A stretch of DNA of 64,000 bases. Origin: Patescibacteria group bacterium. GTDB taxonomy: Bacteria > Patescibacteriota > Microgenomatia > Levybacterales > UBA12049. A model generated the notes under the pieces. That model was not told the DNA's origin, ran no database searches, and saw nothing but the letters and a program-made list of their open reading frames with translations. A program made the translations under genes and the position numbers. Location of the stretch: NCBI GenBank assembly GCA_038063415.1, contig JBBTVD010000006.1, positions 9,948-73,947 on the forward strand, read 5' to 3'. This document shows positions 1 through 37,317 of the stretch, piece by piece. Numbering within the stretch: the first letter of the stretch is position 1; the number at the start of each line of letters is the position of its first letter.

Positions 1-1456
1 AATAAGGGAAATTATTATTAATGATTGTTGAGTAAACTGATTCTAAGTTAGTGAAAACATTTTTCAAGTTATATGTAGCATCTACTTTTGAGAACATGTC
101 CCAAACCCATCCGCCTCCTTTTCCTAGTCTTGAATAATCTCTAGCTTTATAAGGTCTTTTTATTTTTTTATTATCTTGTTTTAATAAATTCAAAAATTCC
201 ACAAACAATCCAAAAGGCATCTTATCATTACCTACCAAAACATTAGTAATTTTCTGATTGTTTTTTAGTTTGATATCTACTTTATCCCTAATCTCATTAC
301 GTTCATCATTTATGATTTCATTAATCCACGTGGGATCTAAATATCGTATCCTTCCGAAATTTATTCTTTGTTTAAAATTATTTCTGTCTTTTTCTACAAG
401 AAAATTAAAAGCTTCTTTTAACCAAAGAGGAAGATAGATATTAAAAGCTCTTTCAATTTCTACAATACTGTATTCATCTCTTTTCTCTAATCCCATTTGA
501 ATATTGAATTCATCTATAAAAGCAAAAATAAATTCTCGTGCTAAAAAATCACTTCCTTTATGACTGAGTAGTTTTTTTTCAACAATTTTTAAAACTTTTG
601 GTTGAATAATTTCTTTTGCGTATTCTGTAGGTCTTTTTTCAATTGGGTTTTCGATTGAATGTCCCGTAAAGCCTAACCCTTCTCTTGTAATTTGATTATG
701 GAGATTATCATCAACTTCTTTTATTTGCACATCATTTGTATCATACCCAATCGGATATAGGGTATATATTACGCTTGTATCTATATACTCGTAATAAGCT
801 AAACCAATCTTCCATGTTTTGGGGTAATATATATTTTTTACAATTTTAAATTCATTATCAATTAAACTATTTAATCGATCTAAGAAAAAATGTGCATTTA
901 TAAAAGATTTTTGAACTTTTCCTAGAGCGGGATTAGAATTTTTCAGAATTGTATCATAAGCTTTTTTTAATTCATCAAAATTTTGATATTTACGGATATG
1001 ATTTCGAGTAAGTATTTCCCATGCATCAATATAATCTATTGTATTTTTATCTAAATATTGTTGCGGATTAAAATTTATGGTTTTAGTATATTTGTTCTTA
1101 CCCAAACTAATTTTTTTTATTGTTTGAGCATCAAAATAGAGCCAATAGATTTTTTCATTTTTGTTATCGACACCCAATAATAAGCATGGGTTTATCTCAC
1201 AGTAAGTAAAGAAAGAAATAGGACAAGCAAATTTTAGTTTATGGTTTATAGGAAGAGTTTTTGCCTGTACAAATAGAGTGCCTACAAAAATATTTTGAAT
1301 GTCTTGCACATCGACATATCCATCGATATTCGGCCACTTATCGATAGAAAAAAGTCTTGGCATAACTCTTTTATGTGATGCCAAAACTTTATTAATCAAA
1401 CCAATAGATTCTGTGTCTGTAAAACTTGTAGAATCATGTGAAGGTACATTTCCCAT
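1..1456 (-). CDS. hypothetical protein; its start is in the window, its C-terminus runs off the left edge
   Basis: Open reading frame on the minus strand begins at an ATG (plus 1454-1456, translation MGNVPSHDST...) and continues past position 1. No recognisable motif. Sits 9 bp downstream of the DUF2779 gene on the same strand, so likely the same operon. Not in the ORF track because no stop lies in the window. Confidence 0.45.
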   Translation of the reverse strand, partial: MGNVPSHDSTSFTDTESIGLINKVLASHKRVMPRLFSIDKWPNIDGYVDVQDIQNIFVGTLFVQAKTLPINHKLKFACPISFFTYCEINPCLLLGVDNKNEKIYWLYFDAQTIKKISLGKNKYTKTINFNPQQYLDKNTIDYIDAWEILTRNHIRKYQNFDELKKAYDTILKNSNPALGKVQKSFINAHFFLDRLNSLIDNEFKIVKNIYYPKTWKIGLAYYEYIDTSVIYTLYPIGYDTNDVQIKEVDDNLHNQITREGLGFTGHSIENPIEKRPTEYAKEIIQPKVLKIVEKKLLSHKGSDFLAREFIFAFIDEFNIQMGLEKRDEYSIVEIERAFNIYLPLWLKEAFNFLVEKDRNNFKQRINFGRIRYLDPTWINEIINDERNEIRDKVDIKLKNNQKITNVLVGNDKMPFGLFVEFLNLLKQDNKKIKRPYKARDYSRLGKGGGWVWDMFSKVDATYNLKNVFTNLESVYSTIINNNFPY

Positions 1457-1465
1457 ATGGATTTT

Positions 1466-2971
1466 CTATGCTAAATTACTTGTCGATATTTCAACTTGCA
1501 GGACTTTAAAAAGCTGTACCATAGCGAGCGTATCAAGCTTACAATACTCGATTAGATCAGTCATAATCTGATTTTTTGTTTCTGCATTTTTTCCATCAAG
1601 TACCGTCTCCATCCAGAGCCGTTGCGCTGATGCTCCTTCCTGGATATTGAGTTCCTTATATGATAATTCCGATACCAGAACAGGCAATACTTTCTTGATT
1701 GATGCACTTCCATAAAAATCTTTATCAACAAACCAACCCTCAGCAAACGGAGTCATGAGATCAATTACTCTGTTATTTAGACTTTGCATAAAGTCCGCAT
1801 ACTCGGGAAACATTACACCAAGTTCTTTATTTCGACTCTTTTCAAATTTTTCGTACCATACAAGAACCGTTCCAGTCTCACCTATATCTTCTTTGAGTCT
1901 TTCGAGAAGAGGAAGGCCTGGATGAGTGTTTTCTGTATGCAGATACTCTTTGTGTTGTATAAGAGCATCAGGGCTTTCAATGATATGAAGTGAATATTGA
2001 AATGGAACTTGTTGATAGGGTCTAATGCCGTCAAAGGATGGAATGACGCTACTGAGTGTTTCGTAATCCAGGAAATAGAGAGGGTACTGGATATTCTTCA
2101 TAAATTCACTGATTTTTGTTTTCTCAATAAGACGCTGATTGGTCTTTGTCGCGTGCACTTGCCGTTTTTGTTTTTCTGAGAGGGCGATATGGTCTGGGAT
2201 GTCTTTAATGTGTGTAATCCCGAGATCTTCAAGCTCACCAACGAGCTGTGGTTTGAGTGTTGCAAGGTGATAAATGCTATGTGGATCAAGATCAGTATAG
2301 AGAGATTTATAAATGGCAAGCCATTCATCAATTGGTCCAAATCGAACAAAGCGAGGTGACATGCCTGGTGGAGTCTCTGATTGGATTGTTCTAATGGCTT
2401 GTTGGATATTTAGTTTTGTTTCATCAATGAGAAGCCTGACCGCCTCTGTGACATCAGTTGTCTTTGTTAGTGCTTTTGTATCAATTGGTCCTTTTCGTAC
2501 ATATTGATTATTAACATGGATGACACCGACATTTCTAATTGTTAACCCTGCGAGCTCAAGCACAACGACTTGAAACGCGAGATCATACTCATGATCTATC
2601 TTAACTGAGGTACTGGATTTTATTTCGTATAAATCAAACACATTGCCTTCAACTCTATCTAATACATCAAAAATACAAGTTATATTATCCGTCCCAACTC
2701 TTCCTTGCAAAATTGTTTTTGTACCATTTTCTATTGCATCAGTCGTTCGTTTTGGCAAAGTTATATATTCTTGATAACCATTAAATCCGAGAAGTGTACT
2801 ATTCGGAAACAATTTTTCGGCATATGTTTCAACCAAATGCCCATTATCAAACATAGCTTGCAATGCTTGATCTACTTCAGGGAGTTTGGCTTTATCATGC
2901 TTCTTAAGCCATAACCATGCAGGTTGTTTAAGAAACATCATATATTCTGATTTAGAAATAATCATTGTCAT
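1466..2971 (-). CDS. DUF2779-family protein with an N-terminal PD-(D/E)xK nuclease-like domain and a C-terminal DEDD-type 3'-5' exonuclease-like domain
   Basis: 501 aa. N-terminal DLYEIK (D..ExK) motif. C-terminal exonuclease-like motifs FLDYET (DxE) and YCKLDTLAM (Yx3D). Size and architecture are typical of DUF2779 proteins. Confidence 0.6.
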   Translation of the reverse strand: MTMIISKSEYMMFLKQPAWLWLKKHDKAKLPEVDQALQAMFDNGHLVETYAEKLFPNSTLLGFNGYQEYITLPKRTTDAIENGTKTILQGRVGTDNITCIFDVLDRVEGNVFDLYEIKSSTSVKIDHEYDLAFQVVVLELAGLTIRNVGVIHVNNQYVRKGPIDTKALTKTTDVTEAVRLLIDETKLNIQQAIRTIQSETPPGMSPRFVRFGPIDEWLAIYKSLYTDLDPHSIYHLATLKPQLVGELEDLGITHIKDIPDHIALSEKQKRQVHATKTNQRLIEKTKISEFMKNIQYPLYFLDYETLSSVIPSFDGIRPYQQVPFQYSLHIIESPDALIQHKEYLHTENTHPGLPLLERLKEDIGETGTVLVWYEKFEKSRNKELGVMFPEYADFMQSLNNRVIDLMTPFAEGWFVDKDFYGSASIKKVLPVLVSELSYKELNIQEGASAQRLWMETVLDGKNAETKNQIMTDLIEYCKLDTLAMVQLFKVLQVEISTSNLA

Positions 2972-3020
2972 TTTATTTTAACCTATATTATTGATGATAC
3001 TTCTATGACATAACTAAAGC

Positions 3021-4907
3021 TTATCGCCAATTATCTGTTAGAATAATCGTCTTATTTTTTGGTTCGTGTTTAAGTGGCTCAATTTTGCCTATATCAATAA
3101 CTACAGGAACATTTGCTAAAAGGCCTGCCAAAATACAAGTTCCTGTTGGTAAAATTGGCAAATACTCAAATGAGACTTTATCTAAATAAGAGATTGTTTG
3201 TTTTACGGCATTAATATCTTCATTGTTAATAAGTCGATGGAGAAAATAGTTATGTAATTGTGAGATAATCGTCGGTGAAATATCCGATGGTCTCTGGCTT
3301 GCAAGAGTAAGGAAGACTCCAAACTTTCGACCCTCTTTAATAATTTCTTCAAAGGTTTCCAGACGATAATCCTTCCATTGCTCACTTTCTCGTTCAGAGT
3401 TCTCTGAGAGAATATTGTGGGCTTCATCAATTATGATATTTAAATATTTTCGATCATCATTTTCTATCTTTTTGTCGTTGTACAATTTCTTGCACAAGAG
3501 TAAAGGAAGAATTTTCCTCATATGCATATTAACATCCTTTAACGACACAATAGTAATATTTTTCCTTCCATCAATTTCTTCAATCGTCCTAATTTCGATA
3601 ACTTTTTTTAGATCATCAATTCTTTTATCTAATCGTTTAATAAGAGGCGAAAGATGTTCCTTGTTAGAAAATCCTCGAATTATGTCATTATAGTATTGAA
3701 TTACAATTTGCAATCTTACTTCGTCTATAGGTGTAACTTGAGTAATATCAATCTGTAGTAGAGTGATTTTACTATCAATAAAATCTGTTCTAAAAGTAGC
3801 TTGATCACTAAAGGTTTTTATTCCGTTTTCTTGATAATAATACTTATTAACTCCGCTATGGAACTTAAGGTGTTCATTATAATCTTCCAAGAGTGTAGTA
3901 ATAGTTGCATTGCCACCTAGGCAGTCTATAAGTTCTTTTAGTAAATTGAAAATTATTGTTTTTTCAACGTTTCTATCACTCTCAGTCGTAGCTTCATATA
4001 TCATTTGTCCAATTAGATTTTTTAACTCAGCTTCTTCTCGTATTTTGGGAGCAAGATAGCTGTTATCTACTGAACGACGTAAAAAGGGCATTTGTGTTTT
4101 TTCGGTTGCTTCTAAAAATACCACCCAAAAATCTGAATCATTAAGGCTCTCTCTTGTAATCGGAAACTTATCTCCTCCAGTTGTGCGTGTGGAAAGCTGA
4201 TAAGTATTCTTATATTTTTTGTCTATAATGACATGATCTCGTCTGTTACCATTTACATATTCGCCATTAAAATCAATTAGAAAAAATTTAGCGTTTCTTT
4301 TGAATTTTCTTTTATCTTTATATTTCAAAAAAAGCTCACGATAAATTTTTGCGAGTGTATATGATTTACCACTACCTGTGTTACCAAAAATGCCGATATG
4401 GCTTGCCATAAGTCCATTAACTCCTACTCGTATCTCTTGACCTTTCTCAAATGATAATGTACCTATGGTTAAAGGATCGTCATTATCTCTTATAAAGTCG
4501 TGCACTTGTTCAAATTCTTTTTTATGAAGTAGAAAACATTCATTGTCGAGCAATGGAAGCTCCTTAATGCCACGTTCAAAATGCTTTCCTTTAAAAAAGC
4601 CCAGTAGGCTGAGACTTAAAACTCTATTAACTTTTTCTTTCTCATTACCATACCCTTGTTTTTTAATAAATTGCTTATCTTCATTTACAAACTCACCTTC
4701 AACCTTACCTATGATTATGGTAAATCCTTTTATGATTTTAATATAGCCGCCAACGGAAATATTTTTTAGAAGTTCGCCTTTATATACAAGATGTGAGGTG
4801 TTCTTTGTTTTATCCACCTTTACTTCTACTGTTCTACCTTTAACTGAGATGACTTTCCCAATTTTGAAAATAGAATCCTCAGATAATTGATCGTTTTTTA
4901 TAGGCAT
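3021..4907 (-). CDS. herA: HerA/FtsK-like ATPase (DUF87), the HerA partner of a SIR2-HerA defence pair
   Basis: 628 aa. Walker A GIFGNTGSGKSY, Walker B IIIDEAHN, sensor TLASQRPSDIS. N-terminal beta-barrel-like region. Starts 5 bp after the upstream SIR2 gene on the same strand. Confidence 0.8.
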   Translation of the reverse strand: MPIKNDQLSEDSIFKIGKVISVKGRTVEVKVDKTKNTSHLVYKGELLKNISVGGYIKIIKGFTIIIGKVEGEFVNEDKQFIKKQGYGNEKEKVNRVLSLSLLGFFKGKHFERGIKELPLLDNECFLLHKKEFEQVHDFIRDNDDPLTIGTLSFEKGQEIRVGVNGLMASHIGIFGNTGSGKSYTLAKIYRELFLKYKDKRKFKRNAKFFLIDFNGEYVNGNRRDHVIIDKKYKNTYQLSTRTTGGDKFPITRESLNDSDFWVVFLEATEKTQMPFLRRSVDNSYLAPKIREEAELKNLIGQMIYEATTESDRNVEKTIIFNLLKELIDCLGGNATITTLLEDYNEHLKFHSGVNKYYYQENGIKTFSDQATFRTDFIDSKITLLQIDITQVTPIDEVRLQIVIQYYNDIIRGFSNKEHLSPLIKRLDKRIDDLKKVIEIRTIEEIDGRKNITIVSLKDVNMHMRKILPLLLCKKLYNDKKIENDDRKYLNIIIDEAHNILSENSERESEQWKDYRLETFEEIIKEGRKFGVFLTLASQRPSDISPTIISQLHNYFLHRLINNEDINAVKQTISYLDKVSFEYLPILPTGTCILAGLLANVPVVIDIGKIEPLKHEPKNKTIILTDNWR

Positions 4908-4912
4908 ATATT

Positions 4913-6094
4913 TTACTCTTCTGCTTCAGGATTGTTGATTTTTTCTTCTGTTACAATATTCTCTACGTTTTCTTCTTCCAGTAAACATCCAAATATATTT
5001 TTATTGATTGTTGGAAAGTCATATTCGAATTTGTCAATTTTTGATCCGTCACCTGTTACTTCTTGTTCCGGGGCAATAATTTCAATATTATTATTTTTAA
5101 TATTATTCTTTCCAAATTTTTCTTCTATACCTATTTTTGCCTTTGAACTATGAGCAATAACATAAATCATAAGAGTAGGATTAGAATTAGCAGCTCTTAA
5201 CGTTATCTCTTTAAGATGCTCGTCTGCAAAGGAAAATCCCATTACAAAAAGAACAGTATTATCTTTTTCAAGTTCATTTGAGTATAAACGCAAGAGTTCA
5301 TAATATGTCTGGTTCATGAGTGTATGCTTGAATTTCTCCTTTGTAGGATTAACAACAATCAGCAGTTTTTCATAGGCTTCCATAAATGCGTCAGTAGAAG
5401 CATCAGTAGTTTTTCCGGTCGCAGCTGTTATTAGTTTTGCTATTGTCGCATCTTCAGGGATATCTATAATATGTGCCGGAGAAATTGTTTTGCTTGAAAC
5501 TTCTTTAACGTGTTTTAACTCACAAGAAAAGATAATATCATTTGGTGTAATTTCCCAAGATAATGATCCATGTAATTTTGAAAGGTTAAATACTGGAAGC
5601 TCTGCTGTATTATCATAATGTAAACTTTTCTTGAAATGCGATTTTTTAAAATTACTGAGGCTAAATTTGGGTTTAAATCGTCCATTAAAACCGTCGTTGT
5701 ATTCAAGATTAAGATCTTCCAAAGCTTTTTCTAAAAAAATATCAATATTTGTAGTAAAAAGGTTTACTTCTTTGCTGAGAAGGGTAACTTTGCGTTTAAG
5801 CAGAATAGAATTTAATATGTTGAGAAAATTACGATAGGTTTCTAGGACCTCTTGTGCAGTAACATCAGATTCAAGTATTTTTGGATTTTTAGAAATTACG
5901 TCATCAAAATATTTTTTATAAAGAGATGCTCGTATAAGTTTTTTTTTGCTAGCGCTCATATTTTGTTTTTCTTCAAGCTCCGTAAGTAATTTCTCAATAT
6001 TTCCGAGCGTTTTGAGATACGGCAAAGATAGACCTGATCCTATGAGAAAGTTTATATTACAATCTTGAATTATATTTTTAATTTTATCGTTCAT
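4913..6094 (-). CDS. SIR2-family (NAD-binding GxGxS) protein, the SIR2 partner of the SIR2-HerA pair
   Basis: 393 aa. N-terminal FLIGSGLS motif (SIR2 GAGxS-type dinucleotide-binding loop). Tightly coupled to the HerA-like gene downstream. Confidence 0.75.
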   Translation of the reverse strand: MNDKIKNIIQDCNINFLIGSGLSLPYLKTLGNIEKLLTELEEKQNMSASKKKLIRASLYKKYFDDVISKNPKILESDVTAQEVLETYRNFLNILNSILLKRKVTLLSKEVNLFTTNIDIFLEKALEDLNLEYNDGFNGRFKPKFSLSNFKKSHFKKSLHYDNTAELPVFNLSKLHGSLSWEITPNDIIFSCELKHVKEVSSKTISPAHIIDIPEDATIAKLITAATGKTTDASTDAFMEAYEKLLIVVNPTKEKFKHTLMNQTYYELLRLYSNELEKDNTVLFVMGFSFADEHLKEITLRAANSNPTLMIYVIAHSSKAKIGIEEKFGKNNIKNNNIEIIAPEQEVTGDGSKIDKFEYDFPTINKNIFGCLLEEENVENIVTEEKINNPEAEE

Positions 6095-6105
6095 AGAGTT
6101 TATAA

Positions 6106-6288
6106 CTATGTGCTCTTTATAAATTTTTCGATATCCTTTTTATGATATCTTCTTACTCTTTTAATCCCAATTTTCATCGCAATAAGAATGCCTTTTTTAT
6201 CCCAAGCTCTGAGTGTATTCGGATGTACTTTTAATATTTTTGCCGTTTCTTTGAGCGTTAATAATTCTTCCATATATAATGCGGTCAT
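6106..6288 (-). CDS. HTH_17 (MerR/excisionase-family) small DNA-binding protein
   Basis: 60 aa, LLTLKETAKILKVHPNTLRAWDKKGIL helix-turn-helix. A paralog lies at 24320-24508. Confidence 0.7.
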   Translation of the reverse strand: MTALYMEELLTLKETAKILKVHPNTLRAWDKKGILIAMKIGIKRVRRYHKKDIEKFIKST

Positions 6289-6401
6289 TCTACATCATTT
6301 TTCATTATATTACAATACATTACATAACAACTGAATACAAAAGACGATGAGAATAAGAATTAAAAATTATGCAGAGAGTAATAATTAATGAGGGTCTGTA
6401 T

Positions 6402-6605
6402 TTAAAAAAGTTCTGGTACCTTTACTTTCAAAGCTCGAGCCAGTTTATCCATCAACTTAATAGATGGTGACTTTCTGCCTTGTTCAATATGCCCCATATG
6501 TGTCCTGCTTATGCGTAACTTTTCGGCTAGTTCTTCTTGCGTATATCCTATTGCCTTTCTTAACTTTTGAATCTTTCTGCCTTGTTTTTCTGGTGTAGTA
6601 GCCAT
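6402..6605 (-). CDS. XRE-family HTH transcriptional regulator
   Basis: 67 aa, IGYTQEELAEKLRISRTHMGHIEQGRKSPS is a classic XRE HTH. A paralog lies at 24005-24217. Confidence 0.75.
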   Translation of the reverse strand: MATTPEKQGRKIQKLRKAIGYTQEELAEKLRISRTHMGHIEQGRKSPSIKLMDKLARALKVKVPELF

Positions 6606-6725
6606 ATGAACATTATCGATAGCTTTGAGTTCTCAATCCACTAGCTTAAAGCGAGCATTTAGCCTCAACTACTACTTGATTTTATCTTTTGTTTCATTTA
6701 TGATCAGGAAGAGCTTCGAAAGGAG

Positions 6726-7175
6726 GTGATTTATATGAAGAAATTCTTAAAATGGGGAGGAATTGCCCTTATTATTATAATCGTGCTTGCTGTTATTGGC
6801 GGTGGTGGTAAATCAAGTAATAGTACAAACTCCACGGGAAATAGTGGACAAGCACAAGAACAACCGAAAACGCCTGAGATGGTTACAGCACAACAAATTG
6901 CTGATGACTTTGATGGCAATCAAGTTACTGCTGAAAAGACATGGAATGGTAAATTTGTACAATTTACAGCTACTGTTTCAAATATAACTGATACAGGGCT
7001 TTCTTTTACTAATGTTGCTTCAAAGCAATTTTCAATGGCACAAATAAGCTGTAAGGTAAAAGATACACAACAGCTATTGTCGCTTAAAAACGGAGAATCA
7101 GTCACAGTCAATGGAGTTATTGGCAAACAAACAATTGGTGTTATCGATATGAGCGACTGTGAAGTTGTAAAGTAA
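6726..7175 (+). CDS. small membrane-anchored secreted protein (OB-fold/BOF-like)
   Basis: 149 aa. N-terminal signal-anchor MKKFLKWGGIALIIIIVLAVIGGGG. Strong RBS aaaggaggtgat 7 nt upstream. The same N-terminus and RBS context recur in the gene at 35077. Confidence 0.6.
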   Translation: MIYMKKFLKWGGIALIIIIVLAVIGGGGKSSNSTNSTGNSGQAQEQPKTPEMVTAQQIADDFDGNQVTAEKTWNGKFVQFTATVSNITDTGLSFTNVASKQFSMAQISCKVKDTQQLLSLKNGESVTVNGVIGKQTIGVIDMSDCEVVK

Positions 7176-7190
7176 GCTCATCTTTCTAAG

Positions 7191-7230
7191 ACATTTCGGG
7201 TTAGAGTGCCTATCCTCCGAAATGTTTTTA
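7191..7230 (+). terminator. rho-independent terminator after the 6726-7175 gene
   Basis: Inverted repeat acatttcgg...ccgaaatgt followed by a T-run. Confidence 0.5.
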
Positions 7231-7569
7231 GTTGTATTCATCTTCTCGATAAGAGAATAGTAAAAAAAGATATTAAGGCACCTGCAATCGGACCACTCAA
7301 AATTATTAATTTACCCTCTGGGGATGACGCATTGTAGAGTCCCACTATATAAGTATAAAAATTAAATATTTGTTCCTTGAAAATAAAAACTAAACTTAGA
7401 AAAGCAAAGAAGAAAATAGTTTTTTTATTTTCGTAAATAAAAACTACGGGACGAAGAATAATGTATTCTAAAAATAATTCAAAAAAATCTTCATGAGTTA
7501 AGCGATTATATCATGCTACATAAAGTGTATTAAAATATTTTTTCATATATATTCTGTCGTATTTTGCGT

Positions 7570-7606: not shown

Positions 7607-7753
7607 GATGAAAAAAGAGGAAGACATAGAAAAAGCGCTGCATATTCTTCAGAAATGCGAAAAGTACTTTTATTGGTATCTTTTGAAACACGATAAAATT
7701 TATATCGAACGCTTCTTTATTCACACCAAGAAACTAAAAAGGATGGTGCAAAA

Positions 7754-28050: not shown

Positions 28051-31000
28051 CACAAATATTTGAATCAGATGTAGAAAAATTAACGGTCGACCTATTGATT
28101 AATCAAGGGTTTACTTATCTGTCTCCTGAAGAACAGGAATTAGAGCGGCAGAATCTAAAAGACGTTTTATTAGTAAATCGATTGAAGGTTTCCATAGATC
28201 GTTTAAATCCATCAATTACTGCTGACGCAAAAGCCCAAGCTCTAAAACAAGTTTTAAACCTTCCAACACAAAACCTACTTGAGAACAATGAGGCATTCCA
28301 CCGAATGCTTACAGAAGGCATCGAAGTTGAATATATGAGTAATGAAGGTGTCAGAGGTGAAAAAGTTTGGCTTGTTGATTTTAATGATATTGCCAACAAC
28401 GAACTTATCGTCACCAATCAATTTACTGTTATAGAAAATAACATTAACAAAAGACCAGATGTCATTATCTTTATTAATGGTTTGCCTCTCGTTGTTATCG
28501 AACTTAAAAACCCTACTGACGAAAATGCTACGGTTCAAAAAGCATTTACTCAACTACAAAATTATAAAAATGCAATTCCTTCACTTTTTTACTACAACAG
28601 TATTTTAATTGCGTCCGATGGTCTAGATGCTAAAGTCGGAACTATTTCTTCTGATTATTCTCGTTTTCTTGCTTGGAAATCTAAAGATGGATATAGGGAT
28701 GACAAGACAGTTGTTCCTCAAATAGAAACGCTGATCGATGGAATGTTAGTAAAAAATGTTCTTATTGATTTGATCAAACAATTCATTGTCTTTGAAAAAT
28801 CCAGTCATATCGATAGTAATACCGGGCTAACGACTATTAGTACAATCAAGAAAATAGCTGCTTATCACCAGTACTATGCAGTTAATAAAGCTGTTGAATC
28901 TACAATAAGAGCGTCAGATGACGATAGCTTAGAATCTACTGCTTTATTAGTAAGAGAAAAACCAGAAGAGTATGGTTTATCTTCAACTGTTAAACAGCCT
29001 AAGGGTGATCATAAAGCTGGTGTCGTGTGGCACACGCAAGGTAGTGGAAAATCTCTTTCAATGGTTTTTTATGCTGGAAAAATTGTATTGGCACTTAATA
29101 ATCCCACCGTGGTTGTCATAACAGATCGCAATGACCTAGACGAGCAATTATTTGATACATTTGCCAACTGTAAGCAACTCCTTAGACAAGATCCTGTTAA
29201 GGCTGAAAATCGCGATCACCTTAAAAAATTACTGAAAGTAGCTGGTGGTGGAATTGTATTTACAACAATTCAAAAGTTCTTTCCTGAGGATGGATCATCA
29301 ACTTACGATGAACTTTCAGACCGCAGTAATATTATTGTTATTGCTGATGAAGCCCATCGAAGTCAGTACGGATTCGGAGCCAAAACTACTTATACAGTTG
29401 ATGGCGTAAAAACGGGTTACGGGTTTGCAAAATATCTAAGAGATGCATTGCCATCAGCCTCATTTATTGGCTTTACGGGTACTCCTGTAGAAAAAGAGGA
29501 TGCAAATACCCCAGCAGTCTTCGGAAATTATATAGACGTTTATGATATTGCTAAGGCCGTAGAAGACGGTGCAACAGTTCGTATTTATTACGAATCAAGA
29601 CTTGCTCAGATTCATCTTAAACCAGATGAAAAGGCACAACTAGATGCAGAAGTAGAAGCTATCACAGAAGGTGAAGAAAGTACTGCTAAAGAAAAGGCAA
29701 AAGCAAAATGGGCTCAGCTGGAAGCTGTAGTTGGACACAGAGACAGGCTTGGAGTAATTGCTTCTGACATTGTTGACCACTTCGAGAAGCGACAGGAAGT
29801 CTTTGAAGGCAAGGCAATGATTGTTGCTATGAGTCGGCGAATTGCTGTTGAGCTCTTTGAAGAAATTGTTAAATTACGACCAGACTGGTTTGACAAAGAT
29901 CTTAGAAAAGGTGCCGTTAAAGTTGTAATGACATCCACCTCTTCCGATCCAGAGAGTTGGCAAATTCACAACACCACTAAACAAAACCGTAAGGATCTTG
30001 GAGAACGATTTAAAAATCCTATCGATCCATTAAAACTCGTTATAGTGCGTGATATGTGGCTCACTGGTTTTGACGCGCCATGTCTTAACACGATGTACGT
30101 TGATAAGCCAATGCAGGGACATAACCTTATGCAAGCGATTGCTCGTGTAAACAGAGTATTTAAAGATAAACCAGGTGGATTAATTGTTGATTACATTGGT
30201 ATTGCTTCTGATCTAAAGAATGCTTTAGCGACATATACCGCAAGCGGTGGTGAAGGCACGCCAACTTTAGATCAAGAAGAGGCTGTTGCGGCGATGCTTG
30301 AAAAATTTGAAATCGTTGAACAAATGTTTGATCAATACGACTTTGAACCTTACTTTACCGCTGATACTCATAAAAAATTGACCATTATCCTCGAGAGCCA
30401 AGAATATATTCTTGGACTTGAAGATGGCAAGAACCGTTTTACCAAGCAGGTAGATCTCCTATCTAAGGCTTTTGCGCTATCAGTTCCCCATCCAAAAGCA
30501 ATGGAGATAAAAGATGAAGTTGGATTTTTTCAAGCAATTAAAGCCAGACTTGTAAAGTTTGAGCCAACTTGTAGTGGAAAGTCAGATGCTGAAATTGAAA
30601 CTGCAATAAGACAGATTGTTGATAAGGCCGTGGTCTCTGATGGAATTGTTGATATATTCGATGCGGCCGGTATCAAGAAACCAGATATTTCAATTCTTTC
30701 TGATGACTTCTTAGCTGAAATTCAGGGCATGGAACGAAAAAACTTGGCAATGGAGCTTTTGAAAAAGATTCTCAATGACGAAATCAGATCACGAGTTAGA
30801 AAGAATTTCATTCAGAGCAAAAAGATGTCTGAAATGCTTGAGAATGCTATTAGAAAATATCAAAACAATTTATTAACTACAGCACAGGTTATAGAGGAGC
30901 TGATTAAACTTGCTAAAGATATTCGAGAGGGAGACAAGCGAGGTGCATCATATGGTCTAACGGATGATGAACTAGCTTTTTATGACGCTTTGGCAATTAA

Positions 31001-31238
31001 CCAAAGTGCAATGGAGGTTCTTGGTGATGCTCAACTTAGGGATTTATCAAGAGTACTTGTGCAGAGAGTTAAATCAAACACTTCAATTGATTGGACTATC
31101 AAAGAAAGTGTACAAGCCAAGTTAAGAGTGATTGTTCGTCGCACTTTACGACAATTTGGTTATCCACCAGATGCCCAATTACTTGCGACCGAAAATGTGT
31201 TGAAACAGGCTGAGCTGTTGGCCGATGATTGGAAATAA
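28047..31238 (+). CDS. hsdR: Type I restriction enzyme R subunit
   Basis: Start taken at the Met of [12 protein letters not shown]. Walker [13 protein letters not shown] box [10 protein letters not shown], helicase C-terminal motifs. Confidence 0.9.
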
Positions 31239-31247
31239 CAAAAATTT

Positions 31248-34010
31248 ATGAATGATGAAAAAATACTCATTAAACAATTCTTTCAAAATTTCCTTGTAAA
31301 AGAAAAGGGTAAAGACAATATTAGTAATGAATATGTTGCCTTCTTAAAAATTCTGTGGAACGGTCTCGATGATTTAATATCTAAAAATAAAATTGCTCGA
31401 AAGATTTACATATTAGAACATATTGAAAAATATCTTATTGAAGATACTTTTCGAACTCAAATAGATTTAAGCGAACTGCCAATTGCCAGTGAACTTGCTG
31501 CATCTCAAGATACAAACACACCTGAGATCACACTTAAAGATATTGATCTAGTCAACTTCCGAGGTTTTAGAGCTAATACTAATGGGAGCGGAAGAAAAAT
31601 TAGATTTCACGAAAAAGTGACTTTAATTTTTGCTCCAAATGGTGGAGGAAAAACTAGTCTATGTGAAAGTATTGAATGGGCACTTACCGGCGACACTTAC
31701 GAACATACAAAAAGAAAAACAGATTCAACACTTAATTATTTTCAAAATCGAAGTAATGCAGATCCGACATATCAAAACACTAAGCTTTCGTTTTTAAACA
31801 ATCAACCTACTGTTCCCAATTTAATTTTTGATCGATGTCTTCTAGAAAAAAATCGAATAGACAAATTTGCGAAACTTGCAATGCAGCCTAATAAAGATCT
31901 GCAAGAAATTCTTGGGGAGTTGTTTGGATTTTCTGATGTTGTAGATTTTTTTAAAGAGTTTGGCCAAGATCTTTCACCCACAGATAACGAAAAAGGTCGC
32001 CCAGGAAGAGAAAACTGGCAGACATGGTTAGAGTGGAGCAATAAAAAAAGTGAACTAGAAAAAATATTAGACGAATCAAAAAAAGAAGAGAAAAAAGCTA
32101 GTGAGGATTTGGAGAAACTCACAGGAGAAAAGAGTTTTGATGACAAAAAAGTTGAGATTGAAGAAAAAGGGAAAGAACTCCGCATCAAGCTTGAGAGCCT
32201 TGAGAAAAATTCTAGCAAGCAATTTTCTACAAAATCTTTTCAAGACAAGATAACTTTACATAAAGATAAAATCGAGCAGTGGAAAAAACTTGATAAGGAT
32301 ATATCTGATAATGCTAAGGATCTTGATTTTGAAAGCCTTTTCCAAGCAGCTAATAATATTTTCAAAAATAATTACAGTGATAATAAATGTCCGCTTTGCG
32401 ATACTCCTATTGAACAGAAACCAGAGAATCCCAATCATGTTTGTGTAGTTACTAGTCCTCAACTAAAGACAGAACAAGAATTGAAGAAACTTAAAAAGCT
32501 AACCGATTGGAAAGTTGAAAGGAATAAACTTGAAATAGATTTAAAAGGTACTTGCTTTAGAGAAATAAGGGACGATTGGCAAAAGATACAACATAATTTA
32601 ATAGATGAAAATTGGAAAGACATCGCGGGCGAAACTGAAAAACCATTAATTCCAGATGTCAATCTTATTGAGATTGAATCTAAGCTTGATGGGAATACAA
32701 ACTCATTTATTGACGCATATGAACTTATATTAGGTAAGGATTTCACTGCATTGGCTGAGTTAGAGGGAAAAGTAACATCTTACAAAAATTTGAAGGATGA
32801 GTTATTGAAAGATAAGCCACAGAAAGAAATTGAGATTCAAAATCTACGTGATGAATTTGCCAAACTACAGGAACAAAAAAATATACTTTCTGCAAAACAG
32901 CAAATCACAAAAAGTAGCGATGAAAGATTGAAAAAGATCCTAAATCAATCCAGCAATTCAGATTTATTTAAAAAGATGTTGGACGTTTATCCAGATTTTT
33001 ATAATGATCTGCAAAATTTTCAATCTGGTTCGATCTTATCTGAAGGTGCTGATATTGATGACTATGTAACGGGCTTTTACCGAGCTTTGAACTTACATGA
33101 TAACGTTGGCGAGATAATAAAAGAAATTAAATTCCCCAAAGGACTTCAAGAAGATTTTTGTTTAATATTTGAAAGCAATAATACCTGTAATGCCCTAGAT
33201 ATCCTCAGCGAAGGGCACTTAAAGACTCTTGGTCTTGCTGCTCTACTTGCCAGAGCAGCTAAGTACAATACGTCCCTGCTTGTCTTTGATGATGCTATCA
33301 ACGCTATCGATTCTGACCATAGAGATAACATTGCTTGTTTATTATCAGGAAGTTTCTCTGACGAAGAAGGAGTTAGTTCATTTGGAGAAAAGTGGGATCA
33401 AATAAAACAATATATAAAAGTATGCCAATTTGTAATAACGTCCCATGACCGCTTCTTTGATGAAAAAATCGCCAATCTATTTTCTAAGGACGAACAATTA
33501 AGATATGTTTTATATTGTGGAGCTGAAGGAGTTGATTTTTGTGAAAAAGGTAATCCAGCCAACTTTGAAGCTAAAGTCGAAGGCTTTTTAAACCCAGATA
33601 CTCAGGATGTTCGCTCAGCAATATTTTATTGTCGTATCTGGTTAGAAGAAATACTTATGGACATCGCAGCAAATTTTAAAAAGCCAAGTAATGGTAAACA
33701 AATCGATTTTTCCAATACTATTGATAAAAAGTCTCGCAAATTAAAAAATCCTGAATTGGCAACTGTAATTCGTAGCTTGGTTTCAAATTTGAAAGTAAAT
33801 GAGGCTTCAGATGATGAAAAAATAACAGCTGGCATTTTAGACCAGATTTATCAAGAAAAGGAAGGAAAGTATATTTGGTTTTTCGAGATCTTGAATCAAG
33901 AAAGTCATTATCGTCGACTTGATCACGTAGATATCTCTAATGCTCCAACAAGTAATGAAGTTCAAGCAATCTTTAATAAGATTCAAGAGATACAAACTCT
34001 CAATACTTAA
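31248..34010 (+). CDS. Rad50/SbcC/SMC-like ABC ATPase with a central CxxC zinc-hook-like motif
   Basis: 920 aa. N-terminal Walker A FAPNGGGKTSLCESIEWAL (RecF/SMC type). Central KCPLCDTPIE inside a predicted coiled-coil. C-terminal signature LSEGHLKTLGLAALLA and Walker B/D-loop LLVFDDAINAIDSDH. Confidence 0.75.
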   Translation: MNDEKILIKQFFQNFLVKEKGKDNISNEYVAFLKILWNGLDDLISKNKIARKIYILEHIEKYLIEDTFRTQIDLSELPIASELAASQDTNTPEITLKDIDLVNFRGFRANTNGSGRKIRFHEKVTLIFAPNGGGKTSLCESIEWALTGDTYEHTKRKTDSTLNYFQNRSNADPTYQNTKLSFLNNQPTVPNLIFDRCLLEKNRIDKFAKLAMQPNKDLQEILGELFGFSDVVDFFKEFGQDLSPTDNEKGRPGRENWQTWLEWSNKKSELEKILDESKKEEKKASEDLEKLTGEKSFDDKKVEIEEKGKELRIKLESLEKNSSKQFSTKSFQDKITLHKDKIEQWKKLDKDISDNAKDLDFESLFQAANNIFKNNYSDNKCPLCDTPIEQKPENPNHVCVVTSPQLKTEQELKKLKKLTDWKVERNKLEIDLKGTCFREIRDDWQKIQHNLIDENWKDIAGETEKPLIPDVNLIEIESKLDGNTNSFIDAYELILGKDFTALAELEGKVTSYKNLKDELLKDKPQKEIEIQNLRDEFAKLQEQKNILSAKQQITKSSDERLKKILNQSSNSDLFKKMLDVYPDFYNDLQNFQSGSILSEGADIDDYVTGFYRALNLHDNVGEIIKEIKFPKGLQEDFCLIFESNNTCNALDILSEGHLKTLGLAALLARAAKYNTSLLVFDDAINAIDSDHRDNIACLLSGSFSDEEGVSSFGEKWDQIKQYIKVCQFVITSHDRFFDEKIANLFSKDEQLRYVLYCGAEGVDFCEKGNPANFEAKVEGFLNPDTQDVRSAIFYCRIWLEEILMDIAANFKKPSNGKQIDFSNTIDKKSRKLKNPELATVIRSLVSNLKVNEASDDEKITAGILDQIYQEKEGKYIWFFEILNQESHYRRLDHVDISNAPTSNEVQAIFNKIQEIQTLNT

Positions 34011-34012
34011 TC

Positions 34013-34768
34013 ATGTCCAAATACTACAATCCAAATCGCACAAGAAATCTATATAACGCAAACTCTTCAGAATTATTTCGTTTAAGTCGTTCTAAGATTG
34101 ATCTTTTCTTAAATTGTCCTCGTTGTTTTTACCTTGATCGTCGATTAGGAGTGGGTCAACCACCTGGATATCCATTTTCTCTCAATTCTGCTGTAGATAA
34201 GCTTCTAAAGAAAGAATTTGATACATACAGAGCCAATAAGACGTCACATCCATTAATGAAAACGTACGGTATCGATGCCGTTCCACTTGCTCATGAAAAA
34301 ATCGATGAATGGAGAGATTCATTGCGGGCAGGTATAACTTTCAAAATTAATGATGAAAATGTTGTCATAACTGGTGGCGTAGACGACGTGTGGGTAACTC
34401 CAGAAGGTGAATTCATCATTGTGGACTACAAAGCGACTTCTAAAGACGCTGAGGTAACGCTCGATGCAGACTGGCAAATCGGTTACAAACGGCAGATGGA
34501 GATATATCAGTGGTTATTCCGTCAAAACGGCTTTAAGGTTTCTCCTGTAGGTTACTTTGTGTATTGTAATGGCGATACCGACCCAGCGGCATTCGACGGG
34601 AAACTGGAGTTTGATATAAAAGTAATTCCTTATGAAGGCAATACCGATTGGGTTGAACGAACGATTTTAGATGCAATCAAATGCCTCAAGGCAGATGAAA
34701 TGCCTGATCCAGGCGAAGATTGCGATTTTTGCAAGTACCGTCAGGCCGTACGACAATTTGAGAAATAA
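34013..34768 (+). CDS. Cas4/RecB-like PD-(D/E)xK nuclease with cysteine pairs compatible with an Fe-S cluster
   Basis: 251 aa. GGVDDVW...EGEFIIVDYK (D/ExK), QMEIYQW (QxxxY motif), N-terminal CPRC and C-terminal CDFC. Starts 3 bp after the SMC-like gene. Confidence 0.75.
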   Translation: MSKYYNPNRTRNLYNANSSELFRLSRSKIDLFLNCPRCFYLDRRLGVGQPPGYPFSLNSAVDKLLKKEFDTYRANKTSHPLMKTYGIDAVPLAHEKIDEWRDSLRAGITFKINDENVVITGGVDDVWVTPEGEFIIVDYKATSKDAEVTLDADWQIGYKRQMEIYQWLFRQNGFKVSPVGYFVYCNGDTDPAAFDGKLEFDIKVIPYEGNTDWVERTILDAIKCLKADEMPDPGEDCDFCKYRQAVRQFEK

Positions 34769-34780
34769 CTCATTCTAAAC

Positions 34781-34815
34781 CTGGACTTCCTCGCTTTTTC
34801 CCGATACCTTGTGCT
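34781..34815. repeat. CTGGACTTC...CCGATACCTTG motif, copy 2 of 3
   Basis: ctggacttcctcgctttttcccgataccttgtgct. Closely related to the copy at 35700-35735. Confidence 0.4.
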
Positions 34816-35076
34816 GGGATGGATAGCAAAAATCAAAAAGACAAGGTACTCGTACTTCTCCGAAGGTCAGAAAAATACTTCTACAAGTATCTCCTCACGC
34901 ATGATTCTGTGTATTATTGATCGATTTTTCTCCGTAACTAAGAAATTAAGGAGATTAATAGAGAAATTTGAGCATAAATGAGATGTTGAGTGTCACTTAG
35001 CATTTACGCATGAAAACTGATATAATCTTGCTAAGCTAGACTAAGCATTTAGCCTGAAAAAGGAGGTGATATACAT

Positions 35077-35625
35077 ATGAAGAAATTACTTAAATGGGTA
35101 GGAATAGGATTTATCATCCTTATAGTAATCGGAGTTATTGGCAGTATGGGAAGTGACAGTAAAAAAGTAGGATCAACTACTGATACTACTCAAACTTCAA
35201 ATACAAAAGAGCAACCAACTCAGGAAACGTACAAAGTTGGTGATAAAGTCCAAATGTCAGATATTATCCTTACTGTAAATAAAGTAGAAACAGCCCAAGG
35301 AGGTCAGTACACAAAGCCATCTGAAGGTAATCAGTGGATTGATGTAAACATGACTCTTGAGAATACAGGATCAAGTCAGCAGTACATTACAACAATGGGT
35401 CAGATGTTCGTCATAGATGGCGAAAATAATCAGTACCAAGTTGCAGTAACTGGAAAAAGACTAGAAAATGCTGGTTCTTTAGGAATGGATGGTGCATTAA
35501 TTGCAAAAGCCAAGAAAACTGACTGGGTAGGATTTGAAGTACCAAAGACTGCAAAAGGTCTCAAGCTTCAGTACAACGCAAGTTTTTATAGTAATAAGAA
35601 AATATTGGTCGATCTTGGAATGTAA
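35077..35625 (+). CDS. DUF4352-like membrane-anchored secreted protein
   Basis: 182 aa. Signal-anchor MKKLLKWVGIGFIILIVIGVIG. DUF4352-type beta-rich domain (GDKVQM...NQWIDVNMTLENTG...FVIDGENNQY). RBS aaaaaggaggtgat. Paralogous context to 6726-7175. Confidence 0.7.
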   Translation: MKKLLKWVGIGFIILIVIGVIGSMGSDSKKVGSTTDTTQTSNTKEQPTQETYKVGDKVQMSDIILTVNKVETAQGGQYTKPSEGNQWIDVNMTLENTGSSQQYITTMGQMFVIDGENNQYQVAVTGKRLENAGSLGMDGALIAKAKKTDWVGFEVPKTAKGLKLQYNASFYSNKKILVDLGM

Positions 35626-35699: not shown

Positions 35700-35735
35700 C
35701 TGGACTTCTCGAGAGGTTCCCGGTACCTTGACCAC
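35700..35735. repeat. CTGGACTTC...CCGGTACCTTG motif, copy 3 of 3, immediately upstream of or overlapping the recombinase B start
   Basis: ctggacttctcgagaggttcccggtaccttgacc. Confidence 0.4.
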
Positions 35736-37062
35736 TGAAATGGCTAAGATACCCGCCCCCGCAAACCAAATAATGCCTCCAATATTAAGCGTGGAATATT
35801 GCTTATACGCAAGAAAATCAAGCGAGGATGATGAACGCCAAGCCATGTCGATTGACTCTCAGATTAAAGAAATGACCGATCTTGCATCTAGAGAAGGCTT
35901 CTTCATCAAAGAAATTCGGCGAGAAAGCCATTCAGCCAAAGAATCAGGACAACGACCAGTTTTTAAGAAACTTCTGGAAGATATTCGAGATGGAATGTTT
36001 ACTGGCATTCTTTCATGGGCTCCTGATCGACTCAGTCGAAATGCTGGGGATTTGGGAATGGTTGTCGATCTTATGGACCAAGGCAAACTACAGCAAATTA
36101 AGACCTTCTCGCAAAGCTTCTCGAACAATCCTAATGAAAAGTTTTTACTCATGATCCTCTGCTCTCAGGCGAAACTGGAGAATGATCAAAAAGGAATCAA
36201 TGTAAAAAGAGGTATTCGAGCCAAATGTGAAATGGGCTGGCGACCAGGGATGCCTCCCATCGGCTATTACAATAGAGCTTTTGCAGGTGTTAAAGATATT
36301 GTGATAGATCCGGACAGAGGGCACATTGTTGCTGAGATGTTTGAACGAGTAGCAAGAGATGGAGATAGTGGTAGGACACTGAAGAAATGGCTCGATACTT
36401 GCCTCACCACAAGAACAGGTAAACAAGTTACATTAAGCCAGATTTATCTCATGCTGAAAAATCCATTCTATTATGGAGAATTTGAATACCCAATTGGTGG
36501 TGGCAATTGGTACAAAGGTGCATACAAACCACTAATTACTCGAGATATATTTGATCAAGTACAAAAACAATTAATTGTTCCTAAGAAATCAAAATGGGGA
36601 GGCAAAACATTTACTTTCAAAGAATTGTTTAAATGTGCAAGCTGTAGGTCATTGGTTATTGGTGAGGATAGATATAGAAAACGAAAGTATAACGAGCCAC
36701 GCTATCATATTTACTATCATTGTACGAGGCAAAAGAAATATGGCTGTCCTGAACCATATATCACTGAAGAAAAACTAATAAAACAGATTCTTCGTTACAT
36801 CAATTTCATGTATATGGCACATCCTCAGCTTTTCGAGTTAAATAACTTTTTGAAATATAGTATGGGCGAGTACAAGAAAATGAGAGATGAAATTCTGTGG
36901 GCACAAGATATTAATCCAGATAACAAACCAATCAACCTTATGGATTATGCCAACTACGCATTTCGCAACGGGACAATGCAGGAAAAGAGAGAAATAACCA
37001 ATGTATTAAAGAGACAACTGTATATTCATAACGAAACAGTTACTTCATTACCTCTTATCTAA
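35728..37062 (+). CDS. large serine recombinase (paralog of 7754-9055)
   Basis: 444 aa. N-terminal VEYCLYARKSSEDDERQAMSIDSQIKEM is nearly identical to recombinase A and the two align along their full length. The true start is possibly the in-frame ATG at 35773 (MPPILSVEY...), which aligns with recombinase A's N-terminus and avoids the upstream repeat motif. Confidence 0.85.
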   Translation: MTTEMAKIPAPANQIMPPILSVEYCLYARKSSEDDERQAMSIDSQIKEMTDLASREGFFIKEIRRESHSAKESGQRPVFKKLLEDIRDGMFTGILSWAPDRLSRNAGDLGMVVDLMDQGKLQQIKTFSQSFSNNPNEKFLLMILCSQAKLENDQKGINVKRGIRAKCEMGWRPGMPPIGYYNRAFAGVKDIVIDPDRGHIVAEMFERVARDGDSGRTLKKWLDTCLTTRTGKQVTLSQIYLMLKNPFYYGEFEYPIGGGNWYKGAYKPLITRDIFDQVQKQLIVPKKSKWGGKTFTFKELFKCASCRSLVIGEDRYRKRKYNEPRYHIYYHCTRQKKYGCPEPYITEEKLIKQILRYINFMYMAHPQLFELNNFLKYSMGEYKKMRDEILWAQDINPDNKPINLMDYANYAFRNGTMQEKREITNVLKRQLYIHNETVTSLPLI

Positions 37063-37243
37063 TCAAGAGTAAATCTTCCGTTCAAATCCGATTACTCTGG
37101 TTACCTCGGACATCATCGAACCGTAGCTACAATATCCGAGCTTTGAGGGTATTTTTGCGGTACGAATGTTTTGAACAAAAATGAGGCGTTTAGCAAGCCA
37201 GTTCGGGCTTTTTAGAGAGTACGGTCACTCTCGGTTCTTATAT
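37063..37243. repeat. att-arm-like segment between recombinase B and tRNA-Gln (paralog of 14776-14964)
   Basis: G+C-richer than surroundings. Conserved blocks shared with 14776-14964. Confidence 0.45.
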
Positions 37244-37317
37244 TGGCTGCCGGACCTGGATTCGAACCAAGATGAAAGGATTCAGAGTCCTCTATCCTAC
37301 CATTAGATGATCCGGCA
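37244..37317 (-). tRNA. tRNA-Gln (anticodon CUG), 74 nt with encoded CCA
   Basis: Minus-strand sequence TGCCGGATCATCTAATGGTAGGATAGAGGACTCTGAATCCTTTCATCTTGGTTCGAATCCAGGTCCGGCAGCCA. 7-bp acceptor stem with U1:A72 (as in E. coli tRNA-Gln), anticodon arm GAGGA-CUCUGAA-UCCUU, T-arm CTTGG-TTCGAAT-CCAGG, discriminator G, CCA. Confidence 0.85.

Follow-up and report, generated by a model that had tools for sequence, protein, structure and literature searches.

The 64,000-nt stretch of DNA analyzed here (the window) derives from a Hainich groundwater metagenome, and its proteins are found exactly on the 95-kb contig Hain_H14_02um_R2_15, in which window position 1 corresponds to contig position 3221. 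A single tRNA gene was detected in the window by ARAGORN: tRNA-Gln(CTG), on the minus strand at 37244-37317 (55.9 bits in Rfam), with its 3' end pointing left. On its left side lie two co-oriented plus-strand genes of large serine recombinases (LSRs), LSR-A at 7754-9055 (433 aa) and LSR-B at 35740-37062 (440 aa), together with two attachment-site (att) arms at 14816-14945 and 37063-37249. The window is probably a head-to-tail stack of two separately acquired, phage-derived integrative elements at the 3' end of the tRNA-Gln(CTG) gene. Element A is partial and occupies 1-14945 in the plus orientation; element B occupies 14946-37249 (22.3 kb) and runs from a left-end P' arm to a right-end P arm.

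LSR-A and LSR-B are both complete, are 68% identical across 430 aa (E=0) and share three Pfam domains, Resolvase, Recombinase and Zn_ribbon_recom, which bears out the close paralogy proposed in a preliminary description of this DNA. The catalytic domain PF00239 was found with E values of 8e-20 in LSR-A and 4e-18 in LSR-B, PF07508 and PF13408 are present in both, and the serine-nucleophile motif YARKSSEDDERQ is unchanged across 30 LSR homologs. For LSR-B, a start at ATG 35740 is more likely than one at TTG 35728, because public assemblies carry the 440-aa product. A PDB sequence search gave distant matches only, to TP901-1 and SPbeta YokA. The AlphaFold model of LSR-B (mean pLDDT 73.5) gave full-length Foldseek matches to the integrases of SPbeta (E 6e-16), Bxb1, PhiC31 and LI (C-terminal domain). 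In LSRs, a coiled-coil motif inserted in the zinc-ribbon domain governs directionality; in the LSR-B model, a confidently predicted but short helical hairpin (369-388/400-420) is placed at this position, ahead of the last strands. The closest relatives of LSR-A were found at loci L104 (83%) and L021 (80%), and the close relatives of both recombinases are all in assemblies of the candidate phyla radiation (CPR)/Patescibacteria, including Daviesbacteria, Woesebacteria, Levyibacteriota and others.

The position of these recombinases beside a tRNA gene is a property of the family. Loci were chosen by protein homology alone: 80 loci from reference genomes, 8 from IMG/VR, 80 from metagenomes and a few from exact-protein look-ups, giving 174 loci (numbered here with the prefix L), and tRNA genes were counted around the 143 LSR copies whose downstream sequence extended to 500 nt or more. 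An opposite-strand tRNA gene starts within 500 nt past the LSR stop codon in 48 of the 143 copies, and a tRNA gene lies within 500 nt upstream of the LSR in one. Of 99 first downstream tRNA genes, 98 were on the opposite strand. For LSRs at least 55% identical to LSR-A or LSR-B, the tRNA is Gln in 55 of 59 cases and Asn in the other four; in distant clades, from Saccharibacteria, Berkelbacteria, Peregrinibacteria and others, it is Ser, Glu, Trp, Lys, Arg or Asp. Three of the eight IMG/VR fragments carry an opposite-strand tRNA gene downstream of the LSR gene, and none of the eight is a free circular genome in which an uninterrupted P-P' site is combined with structural genes. The whole LSR clade comprises at least 8000 sequence clusters.

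The accepted view is that serine integrases target protein-coding genes, and targeting of tRNA ends is unusual for the serine-recombinase class. The use of tRNA and tmRNA genes by serine integrases was stated as previously unreported in a study that found it in 14 of 297 serine-integrase elements (PMC7192596), and a survey of 2026 reported that proviruses with serine integrases preferentially target coding sequences (PMC13626063). No description of the present CPR family of LSRs was found in literature searches.

The boundary between element and host can be located by comparison of closely related elements. LSRs 96-98% identical to LSR-B occur in at least 8 other contexts, in which the arm is conserved up to TATATTGGCTG and is 84-96% identical to the window copy (37063-37249, plus strand; for instance in L033, L011, L031 and L010). 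Past TATATTGGCTG, six different tRNA-Gln acceptor stems follow: CCGGAC in the window, CCCAGC in L011 and L184, CCCGAC in L031, CGGAGC in L010, CGGGAC in L189 and GGAGAC in L186. In five of the six, ARAGORN called an intact tRNA with a CTG or TTG anticodon, so the acceptor 3' strand in each pairs with the 5' strand of its own host; the L186 contig ends before an intact tRNA could be called. Since different, self-complementary stems stand beside one type of arm, the acceptor stem is host DNA. On this comparison, the boundary is placed within TTGGCTG (37243-37249), the core at the end of the arm, which is the reverse complement of CCA, discriminator G and positions 72-71 of the tRNA. The tRNA gene itself is thus host-derived except for its last few bases and constitutes the B' half of the attachment site. 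The B-type arm supplies the discriminator and CCA, and other arm types end in CTTGCTG and supply no CCA. A TG dinucleotide is invariant directly before the point of divergence across attR sites and internal junctions, and this TG (37248-37249 at the tRNA, 14944-14945 at the internal junction) may be the crossover dinucleotide or its immediate neighbour. The core shared by the two ends is 6-7 nt, TTGGCTG/TTGCTG at tRNA-Gln and TGGCGGA at tRNA-Ser, and no long direct repeats are present.

A second arm lies inside the window, between the two elements. A profile was built from the 170 nt preceding the tRNA or junction in 22 other genomes, the window being excluded, and was searched with nhmmer (E<=10) against the 64-kb window. 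Exactly two matches were obtained, both on the plus strand: 37078-37251 (E 3e-40), at the P arm of element B, and 14833-14945 (E 5e-7), at the P arm of element A. The direct formal alignment of the two arms, which had been proposed as a check, is weak yet significant: the column identity is 65%, with a 44-nt ungapped block at 73%, and the local score of 32 compares with 16.5 +/- 2.2 (maximum 28) in 2000 dinucleotide shuffles and with 24 for the best of 1460 other windows of the island. A BLAST comparison of arm A with arm B fell short of significance at E 1e-3 in the pooled loci database, and the homology is for this reason shown via the shuffles and the profile. The paralogy suggested earlier between 37063-37243 and 14776-14964 therefore stands, with a slightly shorter supported extent of about 14816-14945. 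It could be argued that the internal segment resembles an arm by chance or through a regulatory likeness such as a shared terminator, and that only one element is present. The low identity of the arms (about 65%) and the hairpins in both of them would suit such an explanation, which can nevertheless hardly be entertained, because the profile gives exactly two matches, the shuffle and within-island controls rule out chance, and homologous junctions are found in other genomes. An Rfam scan of 1-40000 matched the tRNA alone, and the arms belong to no known RNA family.

The arm at 14816-14945 (A-type) contains a GC-rich hairpin with compensatory changes, followed by CGTCTTGGCTG, and ends in the core TTGCTG. 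The same type of arm directly abuts tRNA-Gln in L021, L022, L032 and L109. Arm type tracks LSR type, the A-type arm being found behind the LSR-A relatives of L104 (83%), L021 (80%) and L022 (72%). Among all loci, 73 arm matches were detected, all co-oriented with the LSR gene; 46 adjoin a tRNA gene, about 20 lie at internal junctions, and contig ends truncate the others.

To the right of the internal junction TG, the sequence reads AGCGGTCC GGTCTAGAACC TTCTTATCCTTATAACGATTGTCTCAC ... GAGACAAATGAGACACTATAAAAAGGGATGTCTCA. This is the P' arm, or left end, of element B (14946-15050, plus strand), which is made up of AGCGGTCC, the T-arm mimic GGTCTAGAACC, and the repeats GAGACAAATGAGACA..TATAAAA..TGTCTCA. 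Homologous left ends were found in L033, L013, L023, L025, L029, L104, L130, L149 and L160. In L033 the left end stands behind a B-type arm and is 93% identical to the window copy over 87 nt; it stands behind other arms in L013, L104, L130, L149 and L160, and behind a host terminator hairpin in L029. In L056, a small Saccharibacteria element, the sequence of the left end is TGGCGGA ACACTCG GGTCTGGAAC, and at the right end the contact with tRNA-Ser is at TGGCGGA GAGAGTG GGATTCGAACC. The P' arm therefore opens with the terminal 6-7 nt of the target tRNA, followed by GGTCTRGAAC, a mimic of the T-arm sequence GGATTCGAACC. This decamer is common to elements that target Gln, Ser and Trp tRNAs and moves with the left-end sequence of the element.

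In the window, GGTCTAGAACC (14954-14964) matches the tRNA sequence GGATTCGAACC at 8 of 11 positions with equal spacing from the core, and the resemblance to the 3' end of tRNA-Gln noticed in the preliminary description is real. The string alone is uninformative, with 7 matches at two or fewer mismatches against 8.7 expected. The T-arm 11-mer finds its best match at an offset of 7-9 in 15 of 23 P' arms (8 being the commonest and equal to the tRNA spacing) and at an offset of 13 in 6, and matches of at least 8/11 occur in 8 of the 23, compared with 1.4% of random sequences. In LI integrase, the zinc-ribbon motif is at base pairs 11-19 in attB and at 16-24 in attP (PMC3783163); the shift of +5 in the 6 P' arms equals this attB-to-attP shift.

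The tRNA-like string at 14946-14964 is best read as an element-borne half-site of element B, and not as a displaced or regenerated tRNA end. The proposal that it terminates the A-side arm as a regenerated tRNA end fails, as the string travels with element left ends that stand behind different arms or behind flanks that are not arms. A classical tRNA island, with a crossover within the tRNA and a new 3' end delivered by the element, would make 14946-14964 the decayed remnant of the displaced tRNA end. It would account for the 8/11 likeness to the T-arm at the same spacing, and the right-hand sequences in L025 and L178 are even more tRNA-like. This explanation is improbable in view of the host-specific, self-complementary acceptor stems beside one arm type, which are not element-borne, of the identity of only 6-7 nt common to both ends, and of the retention of GGTCTRGAAC across Gln-, Ser- and Trp-targeting elements in linkage with the left-end sequence. 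Moreover, no tyrosine integrase (PF00589) was found among the 25 open reading frames (ORFs) scanned or among the called genes with precomputed Pfam results.

Several further features of the arms were observed. The hexamer ACGGTC is found about 25 nt to the left of the core in P arms. Most P' arms have it again, about 8 nt to the right of the core and in direct and not inverted orientation, which departs from the symmetric site predicted for LSRs. In the window, the exact hexamer is found only in the P arm of element B (37209-37214); the window P' arm has CCGGTC at 14952-14957, and the L033 P' arm has ACGGTC at 11517-11522. Inverted-repeat symmetry of attP is clear in L056 (AAAGTTCCA..27 nt..TGGAACTTT) and is not general. 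The operator-like repeats GAGACAAATGAGACA .. TATAAAA .. TGTCTCA (15005-15045) are part of conserved left ends in L013, L023, L029, L033, L050, L052, L056 and L074, and they span elements of Microgenomates, Saccharibacteria and Peregrinibacteria.

The two elements were acquired independently. The closest LSRs in other genomes reach 98% identity for LSR-B and 83% for LSR-A, compared with 68% between the two; each recombinase is thus nearer to those of other genomes than to its neighbour, which argues against duplication in place. An island of single origin, whose recombinase and arm module was duplicated internally and then diverged, would be expected to show what both modules do show, namely the same orientation and the same order of leader-bearing secreted protein, small ORF, LSR and arm. 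It is highly improbable all the same, given that LSR-B is 96-98% identical to LSRs in at least 8 other contexts and LSR-A 80-83% identical to others, and that what follows the junction on its right is a left end typical of these elements and known from other genomes.

Stacks of this kind recur elsewhere. On contig CAYOTA010000001, an LSR gene, an arm and a P' junction (L013) are followed 25 kb later by a second LSR gene and tRNA-Gln (L016), and in L104 a junction is present on both sides of an LSR-A-like element of about 10.8 kb. Arms stand in series three at a time in L178 and two at a time in L022, L025 and L135. In L010 (12395-12560), an arm is joined exactly at the core to the final ~60 nt of an LSR gene, and a second arm and tRNA-Gln come next; this fusion appears to be a deletion ending at the recombination core, a sign of decay within the array. 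A rule that only elements of different type stack on each other was dropped, since L013 and L016 carry near-identical core-proximal arms. The element after the junction in L013 opens with a second, distant serine-recombinase-like gene (11672-12958; 42-48% identical to LSR-A and LSR-B), at the left end and not at the usual right end.

These observations suggest the following history. For the LSR family, the conserved half of the chromosomal site would be the very 3' end of a tRNA gene, and strand exchange would occur at or beside the TG encoding acceptor positions 71-72. The body of the tRNA would remain host DNA, with the element replacing only the discriminator, the CCA and the trailer, and the far arm P' of the element would carry the T-arm mimic. 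As the tRNA half-site would survive each insertion untouched, a further element could insert between the resident P arm and the tRNA. The outcome would be the internal P(A)-TG-P'(B) junction seen at 14816-15050, with the newest element, here element B, beside the tRNA. The earlier proposal that a second related element entered the att site left by the first is retained in that two related elements are stacked around an internal att arm. Its regeneration step is unneeded, because the tRNA is host-derived and the crossover is placed at its last bases.

A number of points weigh against this history. For this host, neither an empty site nor a single-island variant nor an excision-circle junction was found, and exact-protein look-ups returned only Hainich assemblies with the same arrangement; what supports the history is the element family as seen in other hosts. 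The left att site of element A lies outside the data; this element is without a detectable TerL, shows slight degeneracy in the arm hairpin and at the CCA position (TTTGCTG), and may no longer be mobile. The T-arm motif of the window P' arm is at the attB-type offset of 8 and not at the +5 attP-type position, which misfits the textbook half-site model. Furthermore, canonical LSRs recombine only attP with attB (PMC3783163), and insertion beside a resident element would have a P-TG-tRNA target, which is formally an attR; such insertion would require indifference to the non-tRNA half-site or relaxed selectivity.

The stacks imply that an occupied site can be used, and the route may have involved indifference to the non-tRNA half-site, relaxed selectivity or a pre-formed co-integrate. 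No conserved host flank was found beside the sites, which fits indifference to the non-tRNA half. Relaxed selectivity has been shown for the Ccr recombinases that mobilize tandem staphylococcal cassette chromosome (SCC) cassettes (PMC11470126). The co-integrate route supposes that A and B were fused as a circle with P(A)-P'(B) and P(B)-P'(A) junctions, and that the composite was integrated once via P(B)-P'(A). It yields exactly the observed order with an intact attP-like internal junction, and it has no need of an occupied site as target. It is nonetheless unlikely: recombination of attP with attP would be required, which is also non-canonical (PMC3783163); homologous recombination is not likely to have joined A and B, since their arms are only about 65% alike; and the triple stacks and LSR-less remnants (L104, L178, L022, L010) look more like stepwise accretion and decay. 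Two breaks in public assemblies fall at the sites concerned. Two ERZ1292660 contigs overlap by 55 nt inside the tRNA gene, one ending at 37300 and the other starting at 37246, and one Logan unitig breaks off 34 nt beyond the junction core, at 14980. Both are compatible with strain heterogeneity or with repeats shared between genomes.

Beyond the stepwise stacking favoured for the window, it may be proposed tentatively, as an idea with somewhat more against it than for it, that this CPR-wide clade reads the T-arm and acceptor end of a tRNA as a single sufficient half-site and is largely indifferent to the other half. Such recognition would explain the hopping between tRNA species (Gln, Asn, Ser, Glu, Trp, Lys, Arg, Asp), the piling up at occupied sites and the T-arm mimicry of the left arms. 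Internal P-TG-P' junctions would then be live sites, at which modules could be shuffled or excised singly, and the strict attP x attB rule would be relaxed in a natural LSR family.

A CPR-wide clade of LSRs that stacks defence-laden, phage-derived elements at tRNA 3' ends is a variant on two known systems, the SCC-type cassettes and the tRNA islands of tyrosine integrases. As with SCC-type cassettes, insertion takes place at the 3' end of a conserved housekeeping gene without inactivation, tandem stacks have internal att sites, and the cargo is defensive. In contrast to them, the target is a tRNA gene and not a protein gene, each element has a single LSR instead of a CcrA/CcrB pair, the backbone (ParB-methylase, TerS, TerL) comes from a phage, the hosts belong to the CPR/Patescibacteria, and mobility is here a prediction from sequence. 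Tyrosine-integrase islands in genes for tRNA or tmRNA (Islander/TIGER; PMC4383910, PMC7192596) likewise occur serially at one tRNA, with a tRNA-proximal integrase gene and a target gene that stays functional. They differ in the class of the enzyme, which is a serine recombinase in the present case, and in having a long direct repeat and a displaced tRNA fragment, neither of which is present here; the crossover is placed at the last bases of the gene and not in the anticodon or T loop.

The phage serine integrases (A118/LI, TP901-1, SPbeta SprA, Bxb1, PhiC31) share with LSR-A and LSR-B the domain architecture, the fold, an int gene beside attP and a short core, and the 5-bp shift of the half-site motif in a subset of P' arms resembles that of LI integrase (PMC3783163). 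Their identity to LSR-A and LSR-B is below 20-25%, and their targets are protein-coding or intergenic and are used strictly as attP x attB, whereas the conserved half-site here is the tRNA T-arm and acceptor end and stacking is frequent. A clade consistently located at the 3' ends of tRNA genes would mean that serine recombinases, too, can target tRNAs. T-arm mimicry with spacings of 0 and +5 may offer a natural case for the evolution of half-site recognition. Such integrases would also have their target already present in the genetically intractable CPR bacteria. The stack further illustrates how genomes of about 1 Mb can accrete more than 40 kb of defence genes at a single locus.

Gene content is in agreement with a phage-derived backbone carrying cargo. 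In element B, five genes of no assigned function at 15119-19953, one of them with DUF4209/PDC-S39 similarity, are followed on the plus strand by a ParB-N6/N4 methyltransferase and the small and large terminase subunits (20196-23479; Pfam and PHROGs), TerL being assigned to phrog_38 (E 9.5e-77). About 45 of the 80 genome loci showed the ParB-methylase/TerS/TerL trio, whole or partial; where its place could be seen, it lies upstream of the LSR, often ending within 100-300 nt of it. No portal, capsid or tail families were found in 15119-19953 or elsewhere among the scanned genes. With terminase genes as the only such families, the elements are not complete prophages by this evidence; a phage remnant or a satellite-like element is possible. 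The trio is followed by a SHOCT-domain gene (23481-23894, minus) and an XRE-type helix-turn-helix (HTH) gene (24005-24217, plus), identified by Pfam and homologs.

The segment at 24218-34801 (plus strand) carries an HTH gene, a type I restriction-modification (R-M) system, an AAA_23/SMC-like ATPase (31248) and a PD-(D/E)XK nuclease (34013). The R-M set is complete, with HsdM at 24518 (PF02384, 4e-113), HsdS at 26029 (PF01420) and HsdR at 27990 (PF04313/PF18766/PF11867). This 10.6-kb insert is regarded as cargo because the whole of it is absent between the same flanks in L011, L031 and L010, where the small-ORF region follows about 40-60 nt after the XRE gene. Cargo, mostly anti-phage systems, gathers in two slots, one upstream of the small-ORF/LSR module and the other between the LSR gene and the P arm. 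Elements with LSRs 97-98% identical to LSR-B (L184-L187, L189-L191) carry quite other cargo, namely heavy-metal P-type ATPases accompanied by thioredoxin/DsbD genes, an R-M enzyme of the MmeI type and, in the slot between LSR gene and arm, a sigma-70 factor.

Element A is larger than 18 kb. It reaches at least 3.2 kb to the left of the window, up to the start of the 95-kb source contig, without its left end being met, so the composite array of about 37 kb described earlier does not describe the full extent. No second P'-type left end or arm was found between the contig start (window position -3220) and 14816. Within the 3.2 kb left of the window are a TerS-like gene (33% identical to TerS of element B) and a methylase-like gene (22%, ParB-methylase-like); no TerL was detected in element A, this portion included. 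On the minus strand lie a DUF2779/Cas4-like nuclease (1466-2971), a HerA ATPase (3021-4907) and a SIR2 protein (4913-6094), assigned by Pfam and PADLOC. The adjacent SIR2 and HerA genes (PADLOC 2.9e-63 and 4e-175) form a defence cluster of the SIR2-HerA type. Two small HTH regulators, MerR/HTH_17-like and XRE/HTH_3-like in precomputed Pfam results, follow at 6106-6605 (minus). The view of the locus as a defence-island array is supported as far as the anti-phage cargo is concerned, but these are not plain islands, being phage-derived with a ParB-methylase/TerS/TerL backbone. The low G+C content noted for everything left of the tRNA is clear for 1-14 kb (0.29-0.35) and marginal for 14-37 kb (0.33-0.40), compared with 0.38-0.44 to the right.

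The slot between LSR-A and its arm (9057-14775) holds two genes. One, on the minus strand (9057-13625), encodes an SF1 helicase of 1522 aa with a topoisomerase zinc ribbon; the other, on the plus strand (13789-14775), encodes a SIR2_2 protein. In relatives this slot varies from 0 to 7.9 kb and contains a homolog of SIR2 in L089, one of DUF2779 in L165 and a sigma factor in L189, so the 5.7 kb between LSR-A and the arm fits the pattern of the family. No homolog of the helicase was found behind related LSRs in the loci examined, no solo element A with helicase/SIR2 cargo was found, and a metagenome scan with LSR-A gave no relative above 83%. The helicase (C-terminal topoisomerase zinc ribbon; PADLOC PDC-S37/MkoA-like hits) and the divergently placed SIR2_2 gene are a possible two-gene defence system.

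Upstream of each LSR is a gene for a small secreted protein with the same ribosome-binding site (RBS) and N-terminus, as had been noticed before. The segments 6733-6803 and 35075-35145 are 73% identical and comprise a common 5' untranslated region, RBS and signal peptide, the N-termini being MKKFLKWGGIALIIII and MKKLLKWVGIGFIILI. The mature domains are unrelated, PF12869 (tRNA_anti-like, an OB fold) in element A (6735-7175, plus) and PF11611 (DUF4352) in element B (35077-35625, plus). Over 6690-6803 and 35030-35145, a conserved leader joined to unrelated secreted domains looks like a module swap.

A small ORF of about 62-64 aa (...EKYFYxYLLxHDKxYIxRFF...) is conserved upstream of the recombinase module, at 7581-7769 and 34819-34920 in the window and at 9086-9279 in L011. 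In element A, it was read from the sequence as a 62-aa plus-strand ORF that overlaps the start of LSR-A, with a homologous 64-aa ORF in L011/L031, and it is a candidate regulator or directionality factor, the latter being the kind of protein on which excision by serine integrases depends. In element B, the ORF (34819-34920) is shortened to 33 aa and, with the DUF4352 gene, makes up 34819-35625 (plus; Pfam and homologs). A motif of about 35 nt, CTGGACTTC-N11-CCGGTACCTTG, is present in three copies (7570-7605, 34780-34815 and 35700-35735), each upstream of a small ORF or an LSR gene, and is a candidate promoter, operator or secondary recombination site. The copy at 34780 coincides with the downstream edge of the 10.6-kb cargo insert.

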